A stretch of DNA of 64,000 nucleotides from Planctomycetota bacterium (lineage in GTDB: Bacteria; Planctomycetota; Phycisphaerae; Sedimentisphaerales; Anaerobacaceae): assembly GCA_013349615.1 (NCBI GenBank), contig DUZJ01000001.1, positions 5,110 through 69,109 of the forward strand, read 5' to 3'. Under the pieces are notes generated by a model. That model saw nothing but the letters and a program-made list of their open reading frames with translations. It was not told where the DNA came from and ran no database searches. Shown piece by piece: positions 7,859-49,060 of the stretch (its first letter is position 1; each line of letters starts with the position of its first letter). A program made the position numbers and the translations under genes.

Positions 7859-8809
7859 ATGCGAAGGTTCAAGCTGACAAGCAAAAGAATAGAAAATCTC
7901 GTTGGCGAAATTGCCCGCACATACCAGGGCGACTCCGGTATAAATTTTATCGATGCCTCCAATCTGCCCGTGCGGGACAAAATTCTGGACGTCCTTGATT
8001 TGCTATTTGAAGTGCTCTTTCCCGGCTATACCGGCAGAAGAACGGTTACGAAAGCAAATATCAGTTTTATCGTTGGTGATATTCTTTGGCAGCTCGCGAC
8101 CGCGCTCTCTGAGCAGATGGAGCGAGCGTATCATTATCAGTGCAGGACAAGGGAATGTGAAGGCTGCGACTGCAGAACAATGGCCGAGAACGTCACACAG
8201 CATTTATTAACGCGGCTTCCGAAAATCAGAGAGATGCTAAAAGGTGACGTCGGTGCCGCTTTTGACGGCGACCCGGCGGCAAAATCTTACGAGGAAATTG
8301 TGATAAGCTATCCCTGCATAATTGCAATTGCTACATATCGTATTGCACACGAATTGTATATAAAGCAGGTCCCCTTAATTCCACGCATAATGGCCGAATG
8401 TGCACACGCTAAAACCGGTATTGACATACATCCGGGAGCAAAAATCGGCCACAACTTCTTTATCGACCACGGCACCGGCGTTGTAATAGGTGAAACTACC
8501 GTTATTGGCGACAATGTCAAAATCTATCAGGGCGCTACTCTTGGCGCCCTCAGTTTCCCAAAGGACGAAAGGGGAAGGGCAATAAAGGGCGGAAAAAGAC
8601 ACCCCACGATAGAGGACAATGTAACAATATATGCGGAAGCGACGATATTAGGCGATGTAGTCATCGGCAAAGGCGCCGTAATCAGCGGCAACGTCTGGAT
8701 AAAGGAGTCCGTGCCCGCCGGCGTTACCGTTAAAAGCCCGAATCCTGACCTCGTTTACACAAAACAATCGCAGAAAAAAAACAAACAACGGAGTCCCGAA
8801 CGTAAGTGA
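7859..8809 (+). CDS. cysE: Serine O-acetyltransferase (long form)
   Basis: ATG at 7859 (the ORF is open from a TTG at 7835). [31 protein letters not shown] and hexapeptide repeats. Basic C-terminal tail. Confidence 0.85.
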
Positions 8810-8827
8810 GGGGTAGAACAACTTAGA

Positions 8828-9742
8828 ATGAACAAGAAACTCATAGAAAAAATCGAGCAGCTAAAACAAGCGCATAATGCTGTCGTCCTCGCACACAACT
8901 ATCAGACAGCCGACATCCAGGACCTCGCCGATTTTACCGGCGACTCTTTGGGACTGAGCATAAACGCAGCCGAGACCGATGCAGACGTAATAGTATTTTG
9001 TGGCGTCAAATTTATGGCTGAAACCGCCGCAATTCTCTCCCCCGAAAAGACCGTACTTTTGCCGGACGAGCTCGCCGGATGTCCCCTCGCTGATATGATA
9101 ACAGTAGAACAGTTACGCGACTTGAAACAAAAGCACCCTGACGCGCTCGTCGTCTGTTATGTAAACAGTTCTGCACGGGTCAAGGCCGAGAGCGATTATT
9201 GCTGCACAAGTGCCAATGCCGTTGAAGTTGTCGAATCATTGCCCACCGATAGGGAAATCATCTTTGTGCCGGACCAGTATCTCGGGCAATTCGCTGCTGA
9301 AAGGACCGCCAGAGACCTCATCCTCTGGCCGGGATATTGCCACGTACACGTCGCGATAACCGAAGATGATATTAAGAATGCAAAGGCAAAGCAGCCTGAC
9401 GCGATTGTGATGACACATCCGGAATGTACCGGGCCGGTCAAGGCCCTTTCCGACCAGATGCTTAGCACAGGCCAGATGCTCCGCTACGCCGCCAAAAGCA
9501 AAGCGAAACAATTTATAATAGCCACCGAGACAGGAATTATTCATACTTTGAAGAAGCAAAATCCACAGGCCGAATTTATCCCCGCAACCGACAGGGCAAT
9601 TTGTCCCAATATGAAACGCATTACTTTGGAAAAAGTGCTCTGGTCTTTAGAAAATATGCAGTACAAAGTTACCGTGCCGCAGGAGATAAGAATAGAAGCG
9701 AAAAAAGCGATTGATATGATGGTAGAGATTTTGCCCCGTTAG
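8828..9742 (+). CDS. nadA: Quinolinate synthase
   Basis: 304 aa. VVLAHNYQ..IQD.ADF.GDSL, FCGV.FMAETA, CYVNS, HPEC motifs of NadA. Confidence 0.9.
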   Translation: MNKKLIEKIEQLKQAHNAVVLAHNYQTADIQDLADFTGDSLGLSINAAETDADVIVFCGVKFMAETAAILSPEKTVLLPDELAGCPLADMITVEQLRDLKQKHPDALVVCYVNSSARVKAESDYCCTSANAVEVVESLPTDREIIFVPDQYLGQFAAERTARDLILWPGYCHVHVAITEDDIKNAKAKQPDAIVMTHPECTGPVKALSDQMLSTGQMLRYAAKSKAKQFIIATETGIIHTLKKQNPQAEFIPATDRAICPNMKRITLEKVLWSLENMQYKVTVPQEIRIEAKKAIDMMVEILPR

Positions 9743-39402: not shown

Positions 39403-39904
39403 TGGCCCTGACGGTCTGGTCGCCGGCGGCTATCGTCCTTCGGAGCAGTACAATGTTATCAGGCGAGCCGAGCTTGTATAAGGCATAGAGGGCCGCGAGC
39501 CTGACATTTTCGTTTTCATCCTTGAGCAGTTCCGTTACCGACTTTTTCCCAAGTGAGTATTCCAAATCTCCCACGGCCAGTGCGGCGGCAAATCTGACCG
39601 GCACAAATTCATCCTTCAGCAGTCGTTGTACTTTAGGTATCAGTCTGATTCGCCTGGTGGCTGCGACAACTTCGATAGCGTTGGCCCTTACTAATGGGTC
39701 ATCGTCGGCTAAAGCTTCCCTGGCAATTCGGGTGGCTTCCGGGACGAGGGTGTCAATAGAGACAGGCGCGGGCCACTGCTTTTTTATCCGCAGTTGTTTC
39801 CTGCACGCGACAGGAAACAGTGTGGAACTGATGATTGCGAAAGTGAGGAGTTTGGCCACGTACTTTGCTTTTTGTCTTTTAACGTTTTTTCCAGATTTTT
39901 TCAT
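39371..39904 (-). CDS. HEAT-repeat lipoprotein, probably the 5' part of a frameshifted gene
   Basis: Start at MKKSGKNVKRQK..; signal peptide with lipobox (LFPVAC); HEAT/PBS repeats. Ends ..RANAALLLGNRR* in the middle of a repeat. Confidence 0.55.
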   Translation of the reverse strand: MKKSGKNVKRQKAKYVAKLLTFAIISSTLFPVACRKQLRIKKQWPAPVSIDTLVPEATRIAREALADDDPLVRANAIEVVAATRRIRLIPKVQRLLKDEFVPVRFAAALAVGDLEYSLGKKSVTELLKDENENVRLAALYALYKLGSPDNIVLLRRTIAAGDQTVRANAALLLGNRR

Positions 39905-41651
39905 TTTTGCGCCGCTGTACAGAAGTACCATATTTTTTATTTTGGATAATTCTAAGCCAGGCCGTTATTATTATGAGCAACACAAGGCATAGAGCACAAC
40001 AAAAATCCAGCCATTGTCCGTATTTACTAAAAAATGTAGTTCTTTTATCTATCGGCAATTTATCGACGAACCATCCAGACATACCCTTCCTGTCCATAGC
40101 GTTTTGCGGCAAGTTGCCGGCCAAATAGCCATTTTTTAGTTGTCCAAGCGTGTCGATTATGCAGCTTATGCCGGTATTAACGCTTCGCACGACGGCAAGT
40201 CTGTTTTCGACGGCCCTGAAGACGCAAATAGCCGCATGCTGAGGCAGCTCCGTGCCCGGGAAAACCTTGTCGCCTTTGAATCTGACAAACCATCCATCGT
40301 TACTTATGTTAATGAGGAAGTTAATCTGCTTTTGACCCTGGCGGTCGAGGACAAATCTTCGGACAATCTCCGGGAGGGTGGCCTCATAACAAATTATTAC
40401 ACTGAATTTATAAGCAGGGGCCTGGCTATCTGATGTGGAATTTTTACCCGGTCCGGCCATCTCAAAGACGGTGTATTCGGTGCCTGCATCAAGTGAATGG
40501 TCGTAGCCGTAGGGATTAAATTTCATTAAGAGGTTAAAAAGCGGAGGAAAACTCTTTCTAAATGGCAGCACTTCGCCGAAGAGGACCAGATGGATTTTGC
40601 TGTACTGTTTTGGGTCCTTTTTTCCATCAGGCCTGTAAAGAAACGCAGAGTTGTACCTCTCTGTCAAGACAGGCTCTCCGTGTTTAAGTCCAAGCGTGCC
40701 CCCGTAGGCGCCGATAAGCAGATATGCGTTATTTGTGGCGTGTTGGGAGAGAGCTTTGTCAAAGAGGATGGGCTGGCTTAACGGTTCGAGATATGCCAGG
40801 ACACCCTCATTCAACGTCGCCTGCACCATTGTCTCCGGCCAGATGATTAGCTCGGCGCCTTCGGATAAACCTGCTTTGCTTTTTTGCATCAGCTCATCGA
40901 ATAGCTCCTGAGAAGTCTGCTCAGCAACTTCGGTCTCTCCGCGCAGTGCCTCGGTCTTAATCCGCTGCGGGACGTTTGACTGCAGTGAGGCAACGAGCGG
41001 GCCCTGGGTAACGAACCTGTCCGACTCATTGATTCTCCATCGCCCGTAAAAGACCGCGGCAAGCAGTGCAGCGCAGACTACGGCGGTTTTCAAAAAATTC
41101 TTTACCTTGAAGAGGTTTTTTTGCTGAGCGGCGATGAACAATTCAGCCAGCAGGCCGTTGACCATTGCTACCAGGAACGAGACTCCGGCGGCTCCGAATA
41201 TGTCGGCTATCTGGATGATGGTGATGTTGGCATACTGGCTGTGCGAAAGGTGTCGCCAGAAGAAGCCGCCGAGGAAGAGGCCCTGCAGACGTTCAGCGCC
41301 GACGAAGAGTACGGCGGCGGCGAGAAATAACGGTATCTTTTTTATTCTGCAGTAACGCAGACAAAGGGCCAGAATCGGCCAGAGCAGGGCGGTATATAAA
41401 CAGAGCGCGGCCCAGCCCAACAACGTTATCGGAGCTATCCAGTATATATTTGCCAGCCAGTAGCCCAGTGAGGTCAGGTAGGCGACAAGAAATAAGTGTT
41501 TGGGTTTTGCGGTGGGTGAGGACGCAAGAATAAAAGGTACCAGCGATATCCACGCCAGTGCCGATATGCTAATCGGCGACTGAATCACCGTCAGCATCAG
41601 TGCACTGGCGATGAAGGGTAAGCAAAGCAGGAAAATATTCTTTACCTTCAA
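39879..41651 (-). CDS. lnt: Apolipoprotein N-acyltransferase
   Basis: 590 aa. About 7 N-terminal TM helices, a CN-hydrolase domain (WPE, ..K..LVLFGE, ICYE catalytic Cys), and a terminal TM. Its TTG start overlaps the methyltransferase stop (TTGA). Confidence 0.85.
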   Translation of the reverse strand: MKVKNIFLLCLPFIASALMLTVIQSPISISALAWISLVPFILASSPTAKPKHLFLVAYLTSLGYWLANIYWIAPITLLGWAALCLYTALLWPILALCLRYCRIKKIPLFLAAAVLFVGAERLQGLFLGGFFWRHLSHSQYANITIIQIADIFGAAGVSFLVAMVNGLLAELFIAAQQKNLFKVKNFLKTAVVCAALLAAVFYGRWRINESDRFVTQGPLVASLQSNVPQRIKTEALRGETEVAEQTSQELFDELMQKSKAGLSEGAELIIWPETMVQATLNEGVLAYLEPLSQPILFDKALSQHATNNAYLLIGAYGGTLGLKHGEPVLTERYNSAFLYRPDGKKDPKQYSKIHLVLFGEVLPFRKSFPPLFNLLMKFNPYGYDHSLDAGTEYTVFEMAGPGKNSTSDSQAPAYKFSVIICYEATLPEIVRRFVLDRQGQKQINFLINISNDGWFVRFKGDKVFPGTELPQHAAICVFRAVENRLAVVRSVNTGISCIIDTLGQLKNGYLAGNLPQNAMDRKGMSGWFVDKLPIDKRTTFFSKYGQWLDFCCALCLVLLIIITAWLRIIQNKKYGTSVQRRKNEKIWKKR

Positions 41652-42667
41652 CTGGATTTTGCCTTACTGGTACGAACTTTCTTTTGGTGAAGTGGTCCTA
41701 ATTTGCCACTTTTCCGGAGTCTTATCAAACGTTTCATAATTTCGTTAGGGGTGAAGTGGTTCTCCTCATTCGCCATAATTGAATTAAATTTAGCAGTGAA
41801 CAGGGCCAGCTTATGTTCTTCTACGCTCAGTTGTCCCGTTGGGACATTGTTCTCATGGTATAGCCATTTAAGCTCTCTGTCCATGTAATCAGTCCATTCT
41901 CTTGGACCTTCACCCTCTACCGGAAGGTTCTTACAATTTTGTATTCTTTTGCGTGATTCTCTGGTGTACTCACCGGAAAGCTCGATTCCTGTATATTTCT
42001 TTTTTAATTTCGCGGCCACAACTGCGGTAGTTCCCGATCCGCTGAAAGGGTCGAGGACCCAATCGCCTTCATCAGAGCTAACTCGAATTATACGTGCTAA
42101 TAAGCTTTCCGGCATATGACAGGGGTGCCAGTTTCTACGGTGTCTAAATGTTCCACAAATCCGGGGGAAGTGGCTCCAGACATCGTCCGGCATCTTGCCT
42201 GCTGGGTTAGCGCGCCTATCGTTATAAATTAGCTGCCTGTCGGAAGGAGTGCGGACGGCGTGGTCGTTAAAGGTAAATTTGTCTTTGTCATTTACGAAGT
42301 AAAATATGTGTGTGTGTGAGCGAGCGAATTTCTTTTTTGTGCGTTGACCGAATGTATAGTGCCATATTATCCAGTTTCGCATAAACAGGCCTAATTCGTC
42401 AGCTATGATTTTTACGTTCGCGGAATACTCATCGCCTATTGCTATGTAAAATGAGCCGTGTGGCTTTAAGACTTTCTTGCAGACTGTCATCCAGTCTTTC
42501 GTCCAGGCGATGTAGTTTTTCTTTTTGACCTTATCGTGGTATTTGTCGTATTTGTAGCCGATGTTAAATGGCGGGTCGGCAAAAATCAAATCCGCAAAGG
42601 GCTCCTTCGTCTTACGCAAGAGGGCTACGCAATTACCACAAGTTATCCTGTTCAATAGTTTTTCCAT
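41648..42667 (-). CDS. Orphan beta-class DNA methyltransferase (N6-adenine / N4-cytosine type) with a ~90-aa C-terminal extension
   Basis: Motif IV IFADPPFN precedes motif I VLDPFSGSGTTAVVA (beta-class order, PF01555-type). ATG at 42667 is preferred over the TTG at 42712. No nuclease ORF adjacent. Confidence 0.85.
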   Translation of the reverse strand: MEKLLNRITCGNCVALLRKTKEPFADLIFADPPFNIGYKYDKYHDKVKKKNYIAWTKDWMTVCKKVLKPHGSFYIAIGDEYSANVKIIADELGLFMRNWIIWHYTFGQRTKKKFARSHTHIFYFVNDKDKFTFNDHAVRTPSDRQLIYNDRRANPAGKMPDDVWSHFPRICGTFRHRRNWHPCHMPESLLARIIRVSSDEGDWVLDPFSGSGTTAVVAAKLKKKYTGIELSGEYTRESRKRIQNCKNLPVEGEGPREWTDYMDRELKWLYHENNVPTGQLSVEEHKLALFTAKFNSIMANEENHFTPNEIMKRLIRLRKSGKLGPLHQKKVRTSKAKSS

Positions 42668-42698
42668 GACTCTGATGCTCTCATGGCCGGGGCTGGCC

Positions 42699-45600
42699 TC
42701 ACCGTCGCCCAAGTGCTCTTGCTAACCTTAGTTTCTCAACGAGTCCCGCCGTCTCTCCCAGCGGAATCGCCCAGACTTGTATGCACCCTTTCGAGTACTT
42801 GTCGGGATTGTATTCTTGCGGCATTGCGAAGACCATGGATGTTTCGTGGGTAGCTGCGAACAGATTTGCGCCCAGAGTCTGCGCTTTACTTCCATGAGGC
42901 ATAATCACGATCCTGTAGTCAAAACGGTATTCAGCATATATCCCGCCAAGCGCCAAGAGTGTTTTTCTATAATCAAATGTAGTCAACAGGGACCACTTAT
43001 CTTCTGGACAGATAAGAGGGGCTGCGTAAGATTTCTCCATTTCTATGCGATAAAGGTTCTTTTCCAAATCATGTGGTTCGCCGAAGAACCATATTCTTTC
43101 CGCAGGATTCAAGTCGGCCAAAACCCCGTCCGTGCGTTCTTTGTTGAATGTAGGAAATAAAACAAGGAGAACAGGCTGCTCACCTGTGTCGTCTGCTTGC
43201 AACATAGGTGGCTTTGCTACGTATCTGATCCCCTCAAAGGGACCGCGCACCCTCATCATGTAGGCCTTGTGCTCCGTAACTTCCCATTCTTCGGGTGTTG
43301 GGAAGTATTGCTCCGCTTCGGAATACAGAATAGTCAATTCGCATGGGTGTCTCAGTAGGGCCGATAAGGTTTTGGACAGAATTAATGAGGGACAGCTCGT
43401 ACAGTCAAAGAGGATTCGGGGGCATTTCTTCTGTGTCACTGTGCCTAGCAGAGCGCCCATACGCATCGGAAAACCGTGGTCGGGATTGTCTACTGGAGAA
43501 TTAAAAGGGCGGTGCGCCTTGCCAGATGTAAGCTGCCCTATTAGTATCTCATAAGTAGCCCGTCTCTTCTCGTTCGCTTCATAATATCGGTCAAACTCCA
43601 AGAGGACAGCATTCAAGACTTTGACCCCCCTTTCCACTAACGCAGCAGCCCCTTTGGTGGTTCGTTCCTCAAACCCGAGTGCTCCAATGAACAGATCGAA
43701 CTCCGCGTTCTTCTGTATTGCATCAGCTACCGGAGTTAATGGAGTTAGTGAATTCACTGCGACCGTCCAATTGGTCGGTGCTTTTGCCGTGAAATCAACT
43801 CTGTCCTTTTCGGTTGGGATATGCTGAGGAGGAGATTCCTCCTTGATGCTTTTTTGCAACGCTTTGTCTTCGTCCCAGAGTTTAGCTTGGTCAGACTGCT
43901 TGAGTACTCTTCTAAAGTGATCTTTGCAGAACTCCTGTGGTTTGTCCATAAAGTACTCAAACTGTTCTTTTGACAATTGAAGGTGCTCGCTACTCGTGAG
44001 CGTAGTCCTAAGCGCGGGACAGTAGATCCGCCTCAGAGTGGCGCGATCGGCGACAACACTCCTTTGGGATGTAGCCAAGCCGACATCGACAAATATGGAA
44101 GCTTGCTGAAGACGCTGCCACACGTTTTGAGCTGCTTGTGAAGCTCTTGTAATGGCATCAACATAGACGGTCAACAAGTCATACGGCTCACGTCGAGTCC
44201 GACCTTTGCTGGTCGTGCCCTGCCGGACGGGTTTACGCTCGTAGAGGAGATTCTTCGAAAGGTTCCCAAAGCTCTCGACAATATCAAACAGATTCGGCCC
44301 GTCAGGACGGATGTGGAGAATGCGGGAAAGGTATTCTCTGGACACTCTATATATTGCCCTATCCTGCACGGAAGGCGCTATCTTTTTGCTTTTGGCGCCG
44401 GGTCTTTTCCCCGCCTCACGAAATATCTCTCCTACCATTCGAATCATTTCGCTATAGTCTCCGGTGCAGAGGTCCATCAAGCACTCGATCCCATAGTAGT
44501 GAACCTTGGAGCGCGTATTCTCATCATGTAACGCACGACTTAAGGTCCGACCACCCGGATACATGGTCTTGCCCAACCATTCCTCGATTGTGCCTTCGTA
44601 TCCCTCACAATGCTTGAACCTCTCGTTCAGAATCCTCAGGAGCAGCTTTCCTTCCTTTCGTCGCTTGTTCAACTTCAAGTACGCGGAACCAAGGTTTATC
44701 ACTTCGATATTTCGTCCTTCATCGAGGGCAAGCGGACGCGGAAAATGGTATATTGATCCAAACATATGAGCTGAAATTTTGAAGCATATATCTGATGAGC
44801 GTTGACATACGACGGGATGGAGTGCTTCTTGTAGTGCCATTGGAACGCGCCCTTCGGTGTAGTCATCCAAAGAGAAAATAAAATATCTTTGTGAAAGAGC
44901 GGGAATTTCCTTTTTCAAAGTACCAACTAATTGCGTTACAAAATCGGTTGAGCCACGAGCCTCAATGCACTCGCCATAAGCAATGGACTTGCGTATGTAA
45001 CGCATAGAACTTCCCGCATGGCTTATTAGCTCGTCTAAGTCTACGATTGACGGAGGAAATCTCAGCTTCTCCCAAGACGGGCCGAGTTCCTCTTTTAGAA
45101 GTTCTCCAAGTTTCGTAATTACGCTCTTACTAACAGGTCCAAGGGTGACAGGGAGAATTGATAGGGTCGAAGCTACTTCAGCTAGTATGGCCATGTTGAA
45201 GTACAATATGAGAGATTGTTTATTCTTGTTGATGTCAACATCCGACAGGTCAGAAAACCTCATGAAGAAAAGGGATTCGCAGGGAAGGTAAAAACAAACG
45301 TATGGATCATCCTTAATCTCCCTTTTTTTGCCTGCCACAATTTTTGTCTTGAGACGCAATCGTCGAAAAATCATCGTTTTTCCACAGCCGCGAGGACCGA
45401 TTAGCAACACATTTCCGATTTTCTCAAGTTTTGAGGTCCAAGGCATTTTGGTAAGGCAAAGATCAGCAAGCAAAGCATCGTTAGTTATATTCTCCGTGTT
45501 CAATGGTTCAAATGGGTCTTTGAGTTGCCTGGGCGCTTCTTTAGTCGCCGCCAGCGCTCCCTTAATTCTTGTCAGAACATCAGACGGTTTGGAAATACCC

Positions 45601-46334
45601 GTTGACTCAGCAGCTGCACCATTAAGAAGTCCAGGTATATGGGCTATTGCAGCCAGCACTCTCTCATCTTCTCTCGTGATTGTTTCTCTCTGGCAAATAA
45701 CGTCATAAAAACTTCTCAAATGGTTTCCTAAGCATTCTGTATCTTTTAGTAATCCCTCTTGTGTTTCTTCTAAGGGATGAGCCTCACTAAAGTCTATGAT
45801 GACATACCGGACTTCAGGATTTGTCCCTTTTTCTCCAATAACTTGGCGCATAATGTTCCGGTCATGCAAGTCACCGTGGCTAAATCCCAAACGGCCTAAT
45901 TCCTCGAGAGCCACGGTAAGATTTTCAACATACCTAAGTATTTCGGTGTGGGCGCTGAAGTTAGTACCAGACTCTAAAAAGCTCTTAAGAGTTACACCTC
46001 TTACAGGTTTACTCTTGAACCAAACAAACTCATAACTCTTCCGGCCTAGATTCAATATCCAGTCACCAATCTCCTTGGGGAATACGAGGAACCGATCGTC
46101 TTCTGTATCTGCAAACCTGGAGATTTCTCGAAAGGGGGCTCTGCCACCATATGATTCGCGCATCACCAACTTCAACGCCCAAGGAATATCGTATTTGTCC
46201 CTAACATCGTAGGTTACAGCAGTGTTGCCACAACCGAGAACATCTCTGATAGTAAATCCATCGATTTCTTGTCCTATCATCTTCGCCTCGAGATGATTAC
46301 GAAGAGACGCAGGCATTTTGACTTGTTCGGCCAT
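42699..46334 (-). CDS. 1211-aa fusion: protein-kinase-like domain + ORC/Cdc6-type P-loop NTPase + unassigned ~340-aa C-terminal domain
   Basis: Kinase-like: LGCGNTAV (aa 33-40), WALK (K55), HGDLHDRN (153-160), IIDFS (179-183). NTPase: GPRGCGKT (313-320), FIFSLDDY (~485-492), followed by a helical/wHTH-like region. The C-terminal domain starts near DLFIGALGFEERT. Confidence 0.75.
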   Translation of the reverse strand: MAEQVKMPASLRNHLEAKMIGQEIDGFTIRDVLGCGNTAVTYDVRDKYDIPWALKLVMRESYGGRAPFREISRFADTEDDRFLVFPKEIGDWILNLGRKSYEFVWFKSKPVRGVTLKSFLESGTNFSAHTEILRYVENLTVALEELGRLGFSHGDLHDRNIMRQVIGEKGTNPEVRYVIIDFSEAHPLEETQEGLLKDTECLGNHLRSFYDVICQRETITREDERVLAAIAHIPGLLNGAAAESTGISKPSDVLTRIKGALAATKEAPRQLKDPFEPLNTENITNDALLADLCLTKMPWTSKLEKIGNVLLIGPRGCGKTMIFRRLRLKTKIVAGKKREIKDDPYVCFYLPCESLFFMRFSDLSDVDINKNKQSLILYFNMAILAEVASTLSILPVTLGPVSKSVITKLGELLKEELGPSWEKLRFPPSIVDLDELISHAGSSMRYIRKSIAYGECIEARGSTDFVTQLVGTLKKEIPALSQRYFIFSLDDYTEGRVPMALQEALHPVVCQRSSDICFKISAHMFGSIYHFPRPLALDEGRNIEVINLGSAYLKLNKRRKEGKLLLRILNERFKHCEGYEGTIEEWLGKTMYPGGRTLSRALHDENTRSKVHYYGIECLMDLCTGDYSEMIRMVGEIFREAGKRPGAKSKKIAPSVQDRAIYRVSREYLSRILHIRPDGPNLFDIVESFGNLSKNLLYERKPVRQGTTSKGRTRREPYDLLTVYVDAITRASQAAQNVWQRLQQASIFVDVGLATSQRSVVADRATLRRIYCPALRTTLTSSEHLQLSKEQFEYFMDKPQEFCKDHFRRVLKQSDQAKLWDEDKALQKSIKEESPPQHIPTEKDRVDFTAKAPTNWTVAVNSLTPLTPVADAIQKNAEFDLFIGALGFEERTTKGAAALVERGVKVLNAVLLEFDRYYEANEKRRATYEILIGQLTSGKAHRPFNSPVDNPDHGFPMRMGALLGTVTQKKCPRILFDCTSCPSLILSKTLSALLRHPCELTILYSEAEQYFPTPEEWEVTEHKAYMMRVRGPFEGIRYVAKPPMLQADDTGEQPVLLVLFPTFNKERTDGVLADLNPAERIWFFGEPHDLEKNLYRIEMEKSYAAPLICPEDKWSLLTTFDYRKTLLALGGIYAEYRFDYRIVIMPHGSKAQTLGANLFAATHETSMVFAMPQEYNPDKYSKGCIQVWAIPLGETAGLVEKLRLARALGRR

Positions 46335-46393
46335 GATTATCCCCTATTTCTTTTACCGCAAATTATCCTGTTAAGGAGCTTTGACATATAGAC

Positions 46394-46421
46394 ATTTTAT
46401 AAGGCGGCGGCGGGTTTGCAA
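46394..46421 (-). promoter_or_regulatory. Candidate promoter for the kinase-NTPase gene (TTGCAA-16 nt-TAAAAT on the minus strand)
   Basis: Reverse complement of 46416-46421 is TTGCAA and of 46394-46399 is TAAAAT, about 60 nt upstream of the ATG at 46334. Confidence 0.3.
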
Positions 46422-46605
46422 GGGGATTTAGGTGTTAGCGACCTTGTTGTTATTAATAAATAATAAGTCGGCGAGACCCGCTTTTTAGTGTCAATTACGC
46501 ATCTATTCTTCCAGGAAACCTCTTTTTGGCGTGTCTGATTTGCTAAAGTGGCCCATATCCTTTGTCGATAACAACGATGGTCTTATAAGGTTACAGTCGA
46601 TTTCT

Positions 46606-46663
46606 ATCGCGGGGAACAGTTATTTTAGTGAGCAATCGCGGGGAACAGTTATTTTAGTGAGCA
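46606..46663 (+). repeat. Perfect 29-bp tandem microduplication in the leader of CBS copy 1
   Basis: ATCGCGGGGAACAGTTATTTTAGTGAGCA occurs twice back to back (46606-46634, 46635-46663). Copy 2's leader has the unit once (diverged). Confidence 0.9.
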
Positions 46664-46682
46664 AAGGACTTTGCAAAGTTAT

Positions 46683-47771
46683 ATGCGAAGGAAGCAAGAC
46701 AAACAGTTTCGGCTTATCGACCTGTTGGACGACTTGTTAGCCGGGCGAGATGTCTTTTTTAAGTCGGTGTGTTTTGTCAGGGACATGATGACCGAAGATG
46801 TCAAGGTGCTGACGCTGGACGATGCCATAGAGATGTGTCTTAAGTTTATGAGGGAGCACCGCGTCCGACACATACCAGTAGTCGACAGCCCGACCGGCGA
46901 AGATGAACAACAATACTTCGTTGGTATTGTTTCCCAGAGAGACGTGTTCCGACAAATATCACCATATCTGGGAAAAATCGGGGAGGAAGATTCGGACTCA
47001 GAGGCGCTGAAACAGCCTTTGGTCCGAATCGTTACCAGAAACGCGAAGTCCGTATCACCTCAGACACCAATACGTGAGATGATTGGCATCATGGTTGATA
47101 ATCACGTCGATATGGTTCCTGTTCTCATTGACCAGGATATAGTGGGTATCGTTACGTCCACAGATATCTTAAAGCTGTTTATCAGGCTCGATACAATTCG
47201 CCGGCTGTGCTCAAAGATGGAAAAGACGGAGGACCGGAGGCGTTTTGTCGACCTGTTCTCCTGGAATTCCGACAAGGTAATGCCCGCGTTCTCAACAATT
47301 CTGCGAACAGTCGAAGATGTTATGACTGAGCAAGTGGATTATCTGAAGGAGCAAGACAATTTAGCCAGGGCGATGGAGGTCATGCAGAAGGGGGAATTCA
47401 GGCACGTTCCTGTTGTGGACAAGCAAAAGAAACTGTTGGGTATAATCTCCGATAGAGACGTTCTTCGCTATCTTCCGTATCACAGCAAACCATTCGAGGC
47501 GGGAACTGAGATATTTCGCGGCAGGTTGTTTGATGTTGCATCAAACGAGCCGGCCACACAGCGAAACCTGCATCAGATAATGACGCGAGACGTAACTTGC
47601 GTGTTAACGAGCTGTGACTTCTACACTGCCGTGAGGATGCTGTATGAGATGAATATAAGCTGTCTGCCGGTGACAGACAAGGACAAAAAGGTTGTTGGAA
47701 TAGTTACAGTGACAGACGTGATGCGTGGATTGCTGGCCGTCTACGGGCTTTTTGAGGGAGCCATGGCTTAA
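46683..47771 (+). CDS. Stand-alone protein with four CBS domains (two Bateman modules), copy 1
   Basis: ATG at 46683 (the ORF is open from a TTG at 46671). Four repeats of the ..M(T)..V..L...............RHIPVVD....L.GI(V/I)S.RD(V/I)L.. pattern. Confidence 0.75.
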   Translation: MRRKQDKQFRLIDLLDDLLAGRDVFFKSVCFVRDMMTEDVKVLTLDDAIEMCLKFMREHRVRHIPVVDSPTGEDEQQYFVGIVSQRDVFRQISPYLGKIGEEDSDSEALKQPLVRIVTRNAKSVSPQTPIREMIGIMVDNHVDMVPVLIDQDIVGIVTSTDILKLFIRLDTIRRLCSKMEKTEDRRRFVDLFSWNSDKVMPAFSTILRTVEDVMTEQVDYLKEQDNLARAMEVMQKGEFRHVPVVDKQKKLLGIISDRDVLRYLPYHSKPFEAGTEIFRGRLFDVASNEPATQRNLHQIMTRDVTCVLTSCDFYTAVRMLYEMNISCLPVTDKDKKVVGIVTVTDVMRGLLAVYGLFEGAMA

Positions 47772-47983
47772 TTATTCAGCTCGAATTCGGATTCAGCGTC
47801 GCAGGAAACAGAAGAAGAACCGCTTTTTAGTATCAATTATGCATCTATTCTTCGAGGATACATCTTTTTGGCGTAAAGTGGCATATATCCTTTGTCGATA
47901 AAAACAGTGGTTTTGTAAGGTTACAATCGATTTCTATTGCGGGGCATAGTTATCTTAGTGAGCAAAGGGCTTTGCAAAGTTAT

Positions 47984-49060
47984 ATGCAAAGGAAAGAGGA
48001 TAAACAGTTTCGGCTTGTCGACCTGTTAGACGACTTGTTCGCCGGGAGGGATGTCTTTTTTAAGTCGGTGTGTCTTGTCAAGGACATGATGACCGAAGAT
48101 GTCAAGGCGCTGACGCTGGACGATACCATAGAGATGTGTATTAAGTTTATGAAGGAGAACCGAGTCCGACACATACCGGTAATCGACAGCCCTACAGGAG
48201 AAGATGAGCAACAATACTTCGTTGGAATTGTTTCTCAGAGAGACGTGTTCCGACAAATATCACCTTATCTGGGAAAAGTAGGGGAGGAAGATTCAGACTC
48301 AGAGGCGCTCAAACAGCCTTTGGTCCGACTCGTTACCAGAAATCCGAAGTCCGTATCACCTGAGACGACGATACAGGAGATGGTTACCACCATGGTTGAT
48401 AATCGCATCAATATGATGCCTGTTCTGGTTGACCGAGATATGGTTGGCATCGTTACGTCCACAGATATCTTAAAGCTGTTTATCAGGCTCGATATAATCC
48501 GCCGGCTATGCTCAAAGACGCCAAAGACGGAGGAAAGGAGACGCTTTGTTGACCTGCTGTCGGGGGATTCGGACAAGGTGATGCCTGCGTTCTCAACAAT
48601 TCTGCGAACAGTCGAAGATGTTATGACCGAGCAAGTGGTTTATCTGGAGGAACAGGAAAGTTTAGCCAAGGCGATGGAGGTCATGCAGAAGGGGAAATTC
48701 AGGCACGTTCCGATTGTTGATGAGCAAAAGAAACTGGTTGGGGTAATCTCCGATAGAGATGTTCTACGTTACCTTCCATATTTGAGGCCCGGCGCCGAAT
48801 CATTTCACAACAGGCTGTTTGATGTTGCGCCGAACAATGTGGCCACACAGCAATCGCTGCATCAGATAATGACGCGAGACGTAACTTGCGTTCTGCCGAG
48901 CTGTGATTTCTATACCGTGGTGCGAATGCTTTATGAGATGAATATAAGCTGTCTGCCGGTGACTGACGAGGACAAAAAGCTTGTTGGAATAGTAACAGTA
49001 ACAGACGTGATGCGTGGATTGCTGGCCGCCTACAGTTTTTTTGAGAAAGCCATGGCTTAA
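47984..49060 (+). CDS. Stand-alone protein with four CBS domains, copy 2 (tandem paralogue)
   Basis: Same architecture as copy 1, with a 4-aa deletion near ..RYLPYL-RPGAE. Confidence 0.75.
   Translation: MQRKEDKQFRLVDLLDDLFAGRDVFFKSVCLVKDMMTEDVKALTLDDTIEMCIKFMKENRVRHIPVIDSPTGEDEQQYFVGIVSQRDVFRQISPYLGKVGEEDSDSEALKQPLVRLVTRNPKSVSPETTIQEMVTTMVDNRINMMPVLVDRDMVGIVTSTDILKLFIRLDIIRRLCSKTPKTEERRRFVDLLSGDSDKVMPAFSTILRTVEDVMTEQVVYLEEQESLAKAMEVMQKGKFRHVPIVDEQKKLVGVISDRDVLRYLPYLRPGAESFHNRLFDVAPNNVATQQSLHQIMTRDVTCVLPSCDFYTVVRMLYEMNISCLPVTDEDKKLVGIVTVTDVMRGLLAAYSFFEKAMA

Follow-up and report, generated by a model that had tools for sequence, protein, structure and literature searches.

A kinase, an ORC/Cdc6-like ATPase and a tandem CARF-like module fused beside a resident DNA methylase: a candidate modification-linked conflict locus in Phycisphaerae

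Introduction

Is a gene for a large kinase-ATPase protein that stands directly ahead of a DNA methylase gene one half of a defence system, or has it merely come to rest there? The question is raised by a locus in a 64,000-nucleotide (nt) stretch of contig DUZJ01000001.1 from a Planctomycetota bacterium of the Phycisphaerae lineage. We call the whole stretch the window, the 1211-amino-acid (aa) protein the big protein and its gene the big gene; the neighbour is a DNA methyltransferase (MTase) of the beta class. A first-pass annotation had read the pair as an undescribed, compact defence system resembling Pgl (BREX type 2). The answer that we favour, at about even chances, is that the locus belongs to a widespread, horizontally mobile conflict system, probably directed against phages, in which a modification enzyme would mark host DNA and the big protein would sense what is unmarked. 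The pair is a real and coherent feature, and the system a candidate one.

Results

Domain architecture of the big protein

Every kinase and P-loop NTPase motif that the first-pass annotation had quoted from this single open reading frame (ORF) was found where it had been placed. In the N-terminal kinase-like domain these are LGCGNTAV (residues 33-40), WALK with K55, HGDLHDRN (153-160) and IIDFS (179-183), and the residues expected of a eukaryotic-like kinase are all present (G34/G36, K55, E70, H153-G-D155...N160 and D181-F-S). A profile of the family, compared with the PDB, matched kinases, DAP kinases among them, with E 1.6e-6 over aa 17-190. The window sequence alone scored below threshold against Pfam Pkinase (13 versus 31.7), and Pkinase matches are precomputed for many of its homologues. 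In more distant relatives, where the protein is split in two (see below), the kinases match the PD-T4-6 and mad6 profiles (E 1e-11 to 8e-14). The HGDLHDRN catalytic loop and the short C-lobe are reminiscent of kinases of the RIO/Bud32/APH type, and some homologues were labelled RIO-like or Bud32 by JGI annotators.

The central part carries GPRGCGKT at residues 313-320 and FIFSLDDY with D490/D491. Pfam assigned it to PF24389, ORC-CDC6-like, with 115.6 bits against a cut-off of 27 (E 3.5e-33) over aa 274-588 and a second stretch, and the same family is carried by all 86 close homologues described below. An AlphaFold2 (AF2) model of aa 260-870 (predicted local distance difference test, pLDDT, 85) shows an AAA+ core, then a helical lid, then a beta-rich region resembling a winged helix. 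The best Foldseek matches of this model were archaeal Orc/Cdc6 structures (1w5t, 2qby_B, 1w5s and 2v1u, probability 1.0), followed by BrxC (9zll_D, E 2.8e-4), eukaryotic ORC4 and RdrA. The model thus places the ATPase in the ORC/Cdc6 clade of AAA+ proteins, with a predicted DNA-binding region.

Kinase residues K55, E70, D155, N160 and D181 and ATPase residues K319, D490/491 and R572 are conserved in 129 non-identical proteins, 23 of them fused like the big protein and 106 split. Both enzymes are under purifying selection.

The C-terminal region of about 340 aa, which begins DLFIGALGFEERT from aa 880, had seemed unassignable to any family. Seven PADLOC profiles named CARF6--CARF_CARF_CARF match it (the best, PDLC01917, at E 1.9e-10 over aa 876-1193), and the entire chain matches PDLC01925, CARF6--CARF_STK_AAA, a profile of length 1187, at E 4e-37. 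As modelled by AF2, aa 856-1211 (pLDDT 92, predicted template modelling score, pTM, 0.92) form two Rossmann-like halves, which Foldseek matched to Csm6, Csa3, Cam1 and Can1 with probability 1.0. Superposition on Csa3 gave a root-mean-square deviation of 3.0-3.5 Å over about 130 columns, and Can1 gave a TMq of 0.49. The residues GFE889xR891, D977, YxE1006, R1096 and G1148-S-K1150-x-Q show conservation across 110 proteins, 23 of them fused and 87 stand-alone. The G-S-K motif sits at the position of the CARF signature, and the CARF6 profiles cover stand-alone CARF-like relatives from end to end (E 1e-14 to 1e-18). On profile and model evidence, the C-terminus is a tandem CARF-like module with a predicted pocket for a nucleotide ligand.

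A modification gene as the near-constant neighbour of the family

A search of 5.8 billion proteins returned 86 close homologues, 48-76% identical to the big protein and nearly all 1205-1226 aa long, from metagenome-assembled genomes of several phyla. Sumerlaeota, Latescibacterota, Stahlbacteria and other phyla have homologues that are 55-69% identical and stand between unrelated flanks. A HMMER scan of 1.84 billion representatives yielded 858 clusters (at 50% identity) with E <= 1e-3, and 130 with E <= 1e-30. The distant relatives, 21-28% identical and found in both Bacteria and Archaea, are split: one gene encodes a kinase-ATPase (about 850 aa) and the next a CARF-like protein (about 370 aa). 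This split form is the commoner architecture of the family.

We gathered 160 loci from GTDB genomes and JGI metagenomes; the metagenome relatives came from an alignment query, a single-protein query having returned none. When the flanking ORFs were clustered, about 125 of 148 family loci were found to adjoin a modification-type gene, counted within two genes or fewer upstream or four or fewer downstream. The association holds in each architecture. An MTase accompanies 22 of 24 fused loci, and in 21 of these it is a member of cluster c2 lying directly upstream on the same strand; c2 comprises N6/N4 MTases with the S-adenosylmethionine motif first, the alpha-class order. Where upstream DNA can be read, 94 of 100 split loci have a modification-type partner, as do 10 of 11 loci that lack the kinase. 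The partners are alpha-class MTases (c2), beta-class MTases, a C5 MTase with Vsr, a ThyX-like protein (usually accompanying one of the MTases) and DruA/DUF4338; DruA (PF14236, E 1e-70 to 1e-117) fills the MTase slot in about 60 split relatives. The alpha-class partners match mad2 at about 5e-10, and partner genes are closely coupled, with a stop-to-start distance of 2 nt. Eight to nine family loci have no modification gene nearby.

The output domain varies as well. In a kinase-less sister branch from GTDB genomes (L080, L081, L082, L085 and L086), an HD-CE gene (PF24391) comes immediately before the genes for an ORC-like ATPase (600 aa) and a CARF-like protein (320 aa), with a C5 DNA methylase, Vsr and sometimes a ThyX-like gene in the flanks. 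Farther out, the surroundings of the family repeatedly contain type I restriction-modification (R-M) genes and serine recombinases, and the split form was found on five IMG/VR contigs and one Bradyrhizobium plasmid. These comparisons describe what looks like a modular, mobile conflict system with a core of ORC ATPase and tandem CARF, in which the effector (kinase or HD) and the modification partner are interchangeable. It is probably a phage-defence module, because the family almost always adjoins a DNA-modifying enzyme. The variable, defence-like context that the first-pass annotation had proposed to look for is thus seen in a patchy, horizontally moving family with R-M and recombinase genes nearby, and neither a housekeeping role nor a lack of MTase synteny, which it had named as grounds for abandoning the idea, emerged at the level of the family. 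Its proposed test for an MTase as conserved neighbour came out positive for modification genes in general; the beta-class MTase of the window is not the usual partner, which in other phyla is the alpha-class enzyme upstream.

Three further observations concern individual loci. In nine loci, mostly from Xanthomonadales and Pseudomonas (L019, L021, L027, L030, L034, L035, L040, L044 and L061), a conserved gene (c4, about 400 aa) comes next after the split module, and beyond it, on the opposite strand, lies DruA; other loci of the DruA type carry an accompanying gene of about 190 aa (c5), and neither c4 nor c5 has a Pfam or PADLOC match. The fused gene of one Latescibacterota locus (L008:10001-13651) reads as ORFs of 88 and 1122 aa, which may reflect a frameshift or an assembly error.

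Tight coupling also bears on another account, in which the pair is an addiction module of the toxin-antitoxin kind: the kinase-ATPase would be toxic unless the genome is methylated or the partner neutralises it, and the value of the pair would lie in its own maintenance. The 2-nt spacing of partner genes and the patchy, mobile distribution fit such a module, as does the precedent of Pgl, whose methylase and partner behave as a toxin/antitoxin pair and were reportedly described so in the title of a 2015 paper by Hoskisson et al., cited in PMC12839542. Yet the big gene of the window survived the loss of its cognate MTase (see below), and the exchange of effectors and partners together with a CARF-type sensor is typical of immune systems. 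We regard the addiction account as improbable.

The methylase and its lineage

The enzyme downstream of the big gene is, as annotated, a beta-class MTase on the same strand, and the coordinates agree with the 31-nt distance reported earlier: DPPF at residues 31-34 precedes DPFSGSGTT, and PF01555 scored 184.5 bits against 26.7. The core spans aa 1-245 and is followed by a C-terminal tail (aa 246-339) that ends ...LIRLRKSGKLGPLHQKKVRTSKAKSS. Its relatives in the PDB are M.RsrI, CcrM and M.MboIIA (E 1e-23 to 1e-26), and its best PADLOC matches are the MTase_II profiles (E 1.7e-65).

To place it in its lineage we used related contigs fetched through homologues of lnt, the gene that follows the MTase, and the two closest homologues of the big protein (P0002 and P0003). 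By the names of its lnt homologues, the host falls within Planctomycetota/Phycisphaerae. Their common synteny is tig, clpP, clpP, a hypothetical gene (hyp), a variable stretch, lnt, a HEAT-repeat gene and mreBCD. An orthologue of the MTase lies upstream of lnt in nine of ten related genomes, and in five of the nine the big gene is missing. These five, in which lnt is preceded by the orthologous beta-class MTase only, are L168, L170/L171, L172/L173, L174 and L175, with lnt 92%, 90%, 74%, 71% and 63% identical to that of the window. The fused gene is followed by the MTase and lnt in L177 (fused gene 71% identical, lnt 59%) and by the 5' end of the MTase in L176 (fused gene 76% identical), where the contig ends before lnt. 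L169 (lnt 79%) has a split module, 24-27% identical to the window protein, and then an MTase 86% identical to that of the window. In L167, whose lnt is the closest at 94%, the place is taken by a different MTase and two TIR-like genes on the opposite strand. Because relatives keep MTase and lnt together without the big gene, the methylase of the window is resident in this lineage, whereas the big gene is an accessory insertion. The caution attached earlier to the overlap of MTase and lnt was well placed, as MTase orthologues head the lnt operon without the big gene.

Residence in a housekeeping neighbourhood invites a non-defence account, in which the big protein is a signalling or cell-cycle kinase, ORC-like and DNA-binding, that reads the epigenetic state set by the methylase next to envelope and cell-shape genes (lnt and mreBCD). 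The flanks are indeed housekeeping genes and the MTase is conserved in the lineage; moreover, there is no integrase and no compositional anomaly (GC content about 0.48). The big gene, however, is missing from most close relatives with the same synteny, its homologues in other phyla occupy unrelated contexts with an MTase of their own, and a scar marks it as a secondary arrival. A housekeeping role for the big gene is ruled out by its absence from most syntenic close relatives and by the scar, and we consider the wider non-defence account very improbable.

Between any two of the genomes compared (window, L168, L169, L170, L172, L174 and L175), nucleotide identity of the MTase core is 74-83%, whatever the identity of lnt (71-92%). 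The MTase is thus less similar than lnt between close genomes and more similar between distant ones, which may reflect shuffling of alleles at the locus.

The tail occurs in two forms. That of the window and L169 ends ...RLRKSGKLGPL and then a basic stretch, and a like ending is present on the 425-aa MTase of L167 (MTase-425) and on its TIR-like protein h199 (BLASTP E 5e-5 and 0.002; compared regions, window 41651-41932, L169:8985-10004, and L167:7257-7856 and 8354-9631). We considered whether this form ('tail-A') is an adaptor specific to the module, since it was present in two of two genomes with the module and none of five without; L177, however, combines the fused gene with an MTase of the other form (tail-B), and the link is therefore no more than a loose one. 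When the tail by itself served as the query, only nine fragments were returned, and their contigs were too short to show any context.

The cassette of L167 (7257-9631) replaces the methylase where codon 13 of the resident MTase ends, which is the same breakpoint. Its products are a beta-class MTase of 425 aa, a protein with a TIR domain and a TIR-like protein of 199 aa; all three genes lie on the opposite strand, and the cassette looks like a candidate MTase-plus-TIR system in its own right.

The stretch between clpP-hyp and MTase-lnt differs from genome to genome and may hold an MNT(-HEPN) pair, an Exo_endo_phos gene, three SnoaL genes, or one to two CBS genes (L169:3141-3588, L175:5210-5958, L172:5647-6648 and L174:3466-5835). 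Its variability indicates a local hot spot of integration or variation.

An insertion scar upstream of the big gene

DNA homology between the window and L168, L170, L172 and L167 runs from the side of the CBS-domain genes to exactly position 46356 and resumes at lnt. It ends within a 16-codon relic ORF, MSKLLNRIICGKRNRG*, that precedes the big gene. Codons 1-11 of the relic, from an ATG at 46387, are the beginning of the resident beta-class MTase gene. The remaining five codons and the TAA, 2 nt ahead of the ATG of the big gene, resemble the 3' ends of the c2 MTase genes found before the big gene in other phyla (...RKKGR* and ...RRQNGR*, whose stop likewise lies 2 nt before the ATG). This five-codon trace was found by eye and alignment; it is the sole one, as tblastn of the 336-nt upstream spacer found no remnant of an alpha-class MTase. 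The downstream MTase is complete and has its own, diverged copy of the first 11 codons. In L177 and L176 the fused gene is likewise preceded by the scar, which has decayed there but still aligns base for base.

As judged from these alignments, the fused gene came from a cassette with an alpha-class (c2) MTase, shed this partner and was inserted behind codon 11 of the resident MTase. The pair of big gene and methylase arose here because the big gene entered the resident methylase gene. On our reading, the big gene entered the 5' end of the MTase once, early in the clade, after which the arrangement was either retained or spread through homologous recombination; with the MTase 5' end now in two copies, the insert could in principle be lost precisely. 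The arrangement is kept where lnt is only 59% identical, and the big protein there, 71% identical, has all its catalytic motifs intact. L169 provides a second case: its split module, with neither an MTase of its own nor DruA, lies directly upstream of the orthologous MTase. It sits before the MTase's own promoter and therefore represents a separate arrival.

A promoter-like site upstream of the scar (boxes TTGCAA at 46416-46421 and TAAAAT at 46394-46399) recurs as identical sequence directly upstream of the MTase ATG in L168, L170, L172 and L167. Scans for promoters and terminators returned no more sites than in shuffled sequence, and the assignment of this promoter rests on its conservation in relatives, not on the scan. 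Position 46421, given by the first-pass annotation as the end of the feature, is that of the -35 box of the resident methylase's promoter, and the relic ORF (46337-46387) had been overlooked. The big gene is most likely transcribed together with methylase and lnt from the methylase promoter, as nothing resembling a terminator separates it from the MTase.

Does the big protein then need the methylase at all? It could be a self-contained sensor-kinase of abortive infection, independent of the methylase and adjacent to it only through an insertion hot spot ahead of a resident orphan methylase, housekeeping or regulatory in role, that heads the lnt operon. Several of the observations above agree with this: the MTase stands directly upstream of lnt without the big gene in L168, L170/171, L172/173, L174 and L175; the stretch between clpP-hyp and the MTase is variable, and the TIR cassette of L167 also replaces the resident methylase; the big gene stayed intact after losing its own alpha-class MTase; eight to nine family loci lack a nearby modification gene; and the link between tail type and module fails in L177. 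Independence from a partner is nevertheless not the norm, because about 125 of 148 loci keep a directly adjacent gene of the modification type. Two unrelated versions of the module (24-27% identical), both without a partner of their own, reached the same resident MTase through different junctions, and the order of big gene and MTase has been maintained at 59% lnt identity. We judge methylase independence unlikely, though it deserves to be kept in view, and continue to favour a modification-linked conflict system.

Locus layout and neighbouring features

The features of the locus are collected in Table 1. The methylase stop codon overlaps the TTG start of lnt, and the cassette now stands at the head of the operon, with lnt downstream in it. 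Two CBS-domain genes flank the pair on one side and lnt on the other, with the HEAT-repeat gene among the neighbours, and GC content is unremarkable across the region. As noted earlier for this pair, neither the ORF list nor Pfam shows a restriction endonuclease ORF or domain on either side, and the pair does not qualify as a type II R-M system. An Rfam scan of 41000-47500 found no RNA family at E <= 0.1.

Table 1. Features of the locus, in positions of the window
Feature	Position	Strand	Description	Basis
Big gene	42699..46334	(-)	1211 aa, ATG start; kinase, ORC/Cdc6-type AAA+ ATPase and tandem CARF-like module fused	ORF call, Pfam, PADLOC
Protein-kinase-like domain	45555..46277	(-)	about aa 20-260, short C-lobe	K55, E70, HGD155, N160, D181
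ORC/Cdc6-type AAA+ ATPase	43905..45515	(-)	about aa 274-810	Walker A GPRGCGKT (K319), Walker B DD490/491
Tandem CARF-like module	42735..43709	(-)	about aa 876-1200, two Rossmann-like halves	PADLOC CARF6 profiles, AF2, Foldseek
Spacer between big gene and methylase	42668..42698	(-)	31 nt	terminator-like site absent on that strand
Beta-class N6A/N4C DNA methyltransferase	41648..42667	(-)	339 aa, ATG at 42667	PF01555 184.5 bits
lnt (apolipoprotein N-acyltransferase)	39879..41651	(-)	TTG start	Pfam LNT_N, CN_hydrolase; homologue names
Insertion scar	46337..46387	(-)	51 nt, 16-codon relic ORF	DNA alignment to relatives
Promoter-like site of the resident methylase (putative)	46394..46421	(-)	TTGCAA, 16 nt, TAAAAT; now upstream of the big gene	consensus match and conservation

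The two CBS-domain genes (46671-47771 and 47972-49060) are tandem paralogues with about 80-83% nucleotide identity to each other; some relatives have a single copy. Just upstream of the divergent CBS-domain gene 46671..47771 lies a perfect 29-nt tandem duplication (46606-46663; two copies of ATCGCGGGGAACAGTTATTTTAGTGAGCA). It is present in all contigs of the window strain (L001-L006) and in no other locus fetched by then, including the related L167-L175.

Discussion

A mechanism for a modification-linked conflict system can be sketched from these parts. The neighbouring methylase would mark host DNA. The ORC-like ATPase, with its winged-helix-like region, would bind to unmarked DNA and assemble on it with ATP, and the double CARF pocket would take a nucleotide-type ligand as a second input. 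The combined inputs would switch on the kinase (in the sister branch, HD would be the output), which would phosphorylate host or phage proteins and lead to a block of replication or to dormancy. In the window, the resident methylase would stand in for the alpha-class enzyme that the module lost. Of the novel minimal self/non-self system proposed earlier, the link to modification holds, with catalytic residues conserved in 129 members; novelty does not, since the family is already catalogued, and the methylase appears to be a co-opted resident.

Several points weigh against this picture. The methylase's primary role may be unrelated to the big gene, because five related genomes keep the one without the other, and the adjacency of the two could partly reflect an insertion hot spot, because the region upstream of the MTase is a generally variable one. 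Partners are swapped among chemically unrelated classes, ThyX-like proteins and DruA among them, and DruA is not a DNA methylase, which is hard to reconcile with a simple reader of methyl marks. For the C-terminal module, the lowest Foldseek E-values belong to C-terminal domains of cation-chloride cotransporters rather than to CARF proteins, and the Pfam CARF models give no match to the big protein. About 150 neighbourhoods of the family contain no cyclase or other signal generator. With its short C-lobe of the RIO/Bud32/APH type, the kinase-like domain might not be a protein kinase. Finally, no nuclease domain was recognised: Pfam found none in aa 590-870, and Foldseek matched the model of aa 260-870 to AAA+ ATPases only.

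A broader proposal, which we put forward as tentative, is that the ORC/Cdc6 ATPase and tandem CARF core defines a new class of immune systems, linked to modification and widespread among Bacteria and Archaea. In such a class, a CARF module without a dedicated cyclase would gate a kinase or HD output through a DNA-loading ATPase, and the self-marking enzyme would be freely exchangeable, even to the point of adopting an orphan methylase of the host. Because there is no dedicated cyclase, the CARF sensor would respond to a phage-derived nucleotide or a host alarm nucleotide. CARF sensors have so far been tied to the cyclic-oligoadenylate signalling of CRISPR type III, and we know of no CARF protein with a kinase or HD output relayed by an ORC ATPase. 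If true, the proposal would add the first CARF-controlled protein kinase and a natural case in which a housekeeping epigenetic mark is co-opted by a defence module. The family would join three themes, namely self marking (as in R-M, BREX and MADS), DNA switches built on ORC/Cdc6 ATPases (BrxC) and CARF sensors; a CARF module without a cyclase in its operon poses the question of which nucleotide signals infection, and the free exchange of partners amounts to a set of natural experiments on the coupling of marking and sensing. The window locus would be a clean case, with a datable scar, its own methylase dropped and a resident one adopted, and a second version of the module did likewise in a sister genome (L169). 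The one-chain form, 1211 aa with a small MTase, is compact enough for cloning and mutagenesis.

How does the locus compare with known systems? Pgl (BREX type 2), to which the first-pass annotation had likened it, is also methylase-linked and includes a kinase and an ORC/Cdc6-like P-loop ATPase with no obvious classical restriction endonuclease; the resemblance is one of function only. PglW is reported to combine kinase domains with an inactive ORC/STAND-like domain (PMC12839542), an architectural parallel to the window protein. The three components kinase, ORC/Cdc6-like ATPase and methylase, and BrxC as a structural neighbour of the ATPase by Foldseek, would favour a minimal member of this group. 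PADLOC, however, gave no match in either gene to PglZ, a protein of alkaline-phosphatase fold (the neighbours being CBS-domain genes, lnt and the HEAT-repeat gene), no match to a PglX-type large N6-adenine MTase, the window enzyme being a 339-aa beta-class MTase that matches type II profiles, and no BrxC/PglY hidden Markov model match; the profile of PglW, which has NERD nuclease, pseudo-kinase and kinase parts, matched marginally (E 0.018) and in the kinase core only. By its motifs the window ATPase is catalytically intact, and it is fused to the kinase, unlike in Pgl; BREX also has no counterpart of the tandem CARF-like module. With its defining components missing, membership is effectively refuted, and we regard it as highly improbable.

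MADS (mad1-mad8) likewise encodes methylase, kinase and ATPase together, and the kinases of split relatives match mad6 at 1e-11 to 1e-14 and PD-T4-6 at up to 8e-14. By profile, the MADS and PD-T4-6 kinases are the nearest kinase relatives, below equivalog thresholds: the window protein scores 12 bits against the cut-off of 460 for NCBIfam MAD6 (NF047741). MADS comprises eight genes, whereas no other mad genes lie near the window pair, and a CARF-ORC core is not described for it.

Each half of the C-terminus resembles the fold of the CARF effectors Csm6, Csa3 and Cam1, and Can1 has two CARF domains in one chain, as does the window protein. The CARF effectors of type III CRISPR differ in context, as no family neighbourhood contains Cas10, a CD-NTase or an mCpol cyclase. 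Druantia type I shares DruA (DUF4338) with about 60 split relatives; these have no DruB, DruC, DruD or DruE, and the window has no DruA. Like the orphan beta-class MTases CcrM and YhdJ, the window MTase has no cognate endonuclease and is conserved in its lineage, but it scores below the equivalog cut-offs (172 versus 292 for YhdJ, 114 versus 830 for CcrM) and, unlike CcrM, YhdJ and M.RsrI, has a C-terminal tail of about 95 aa in two lineage forms.

PADLOC recognised no complete known system, as the first-pass annotation had predicted. Its word 'undescribed' was nonetheless too strong, because PDLC01925 already covers the whole kinase-AAA-CARF architecture. The protein family counts as catalogued on its matches to PDLC01925, the CARF6 profiles and PF24389; these are sequence catalogues only, and PADLOC defines no system around them. 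The CARF6 profile names presumably come from the 2020 CARF/SAVED classification of Makarova et al. Among the papers searched, none describes or tests the system, and neither the 2025 CRISPR classification nor a survey of type III effectors mentions it. What is new here is the link to modification genes, the exchange of kinase for HD, and the history of insertion at this locus.

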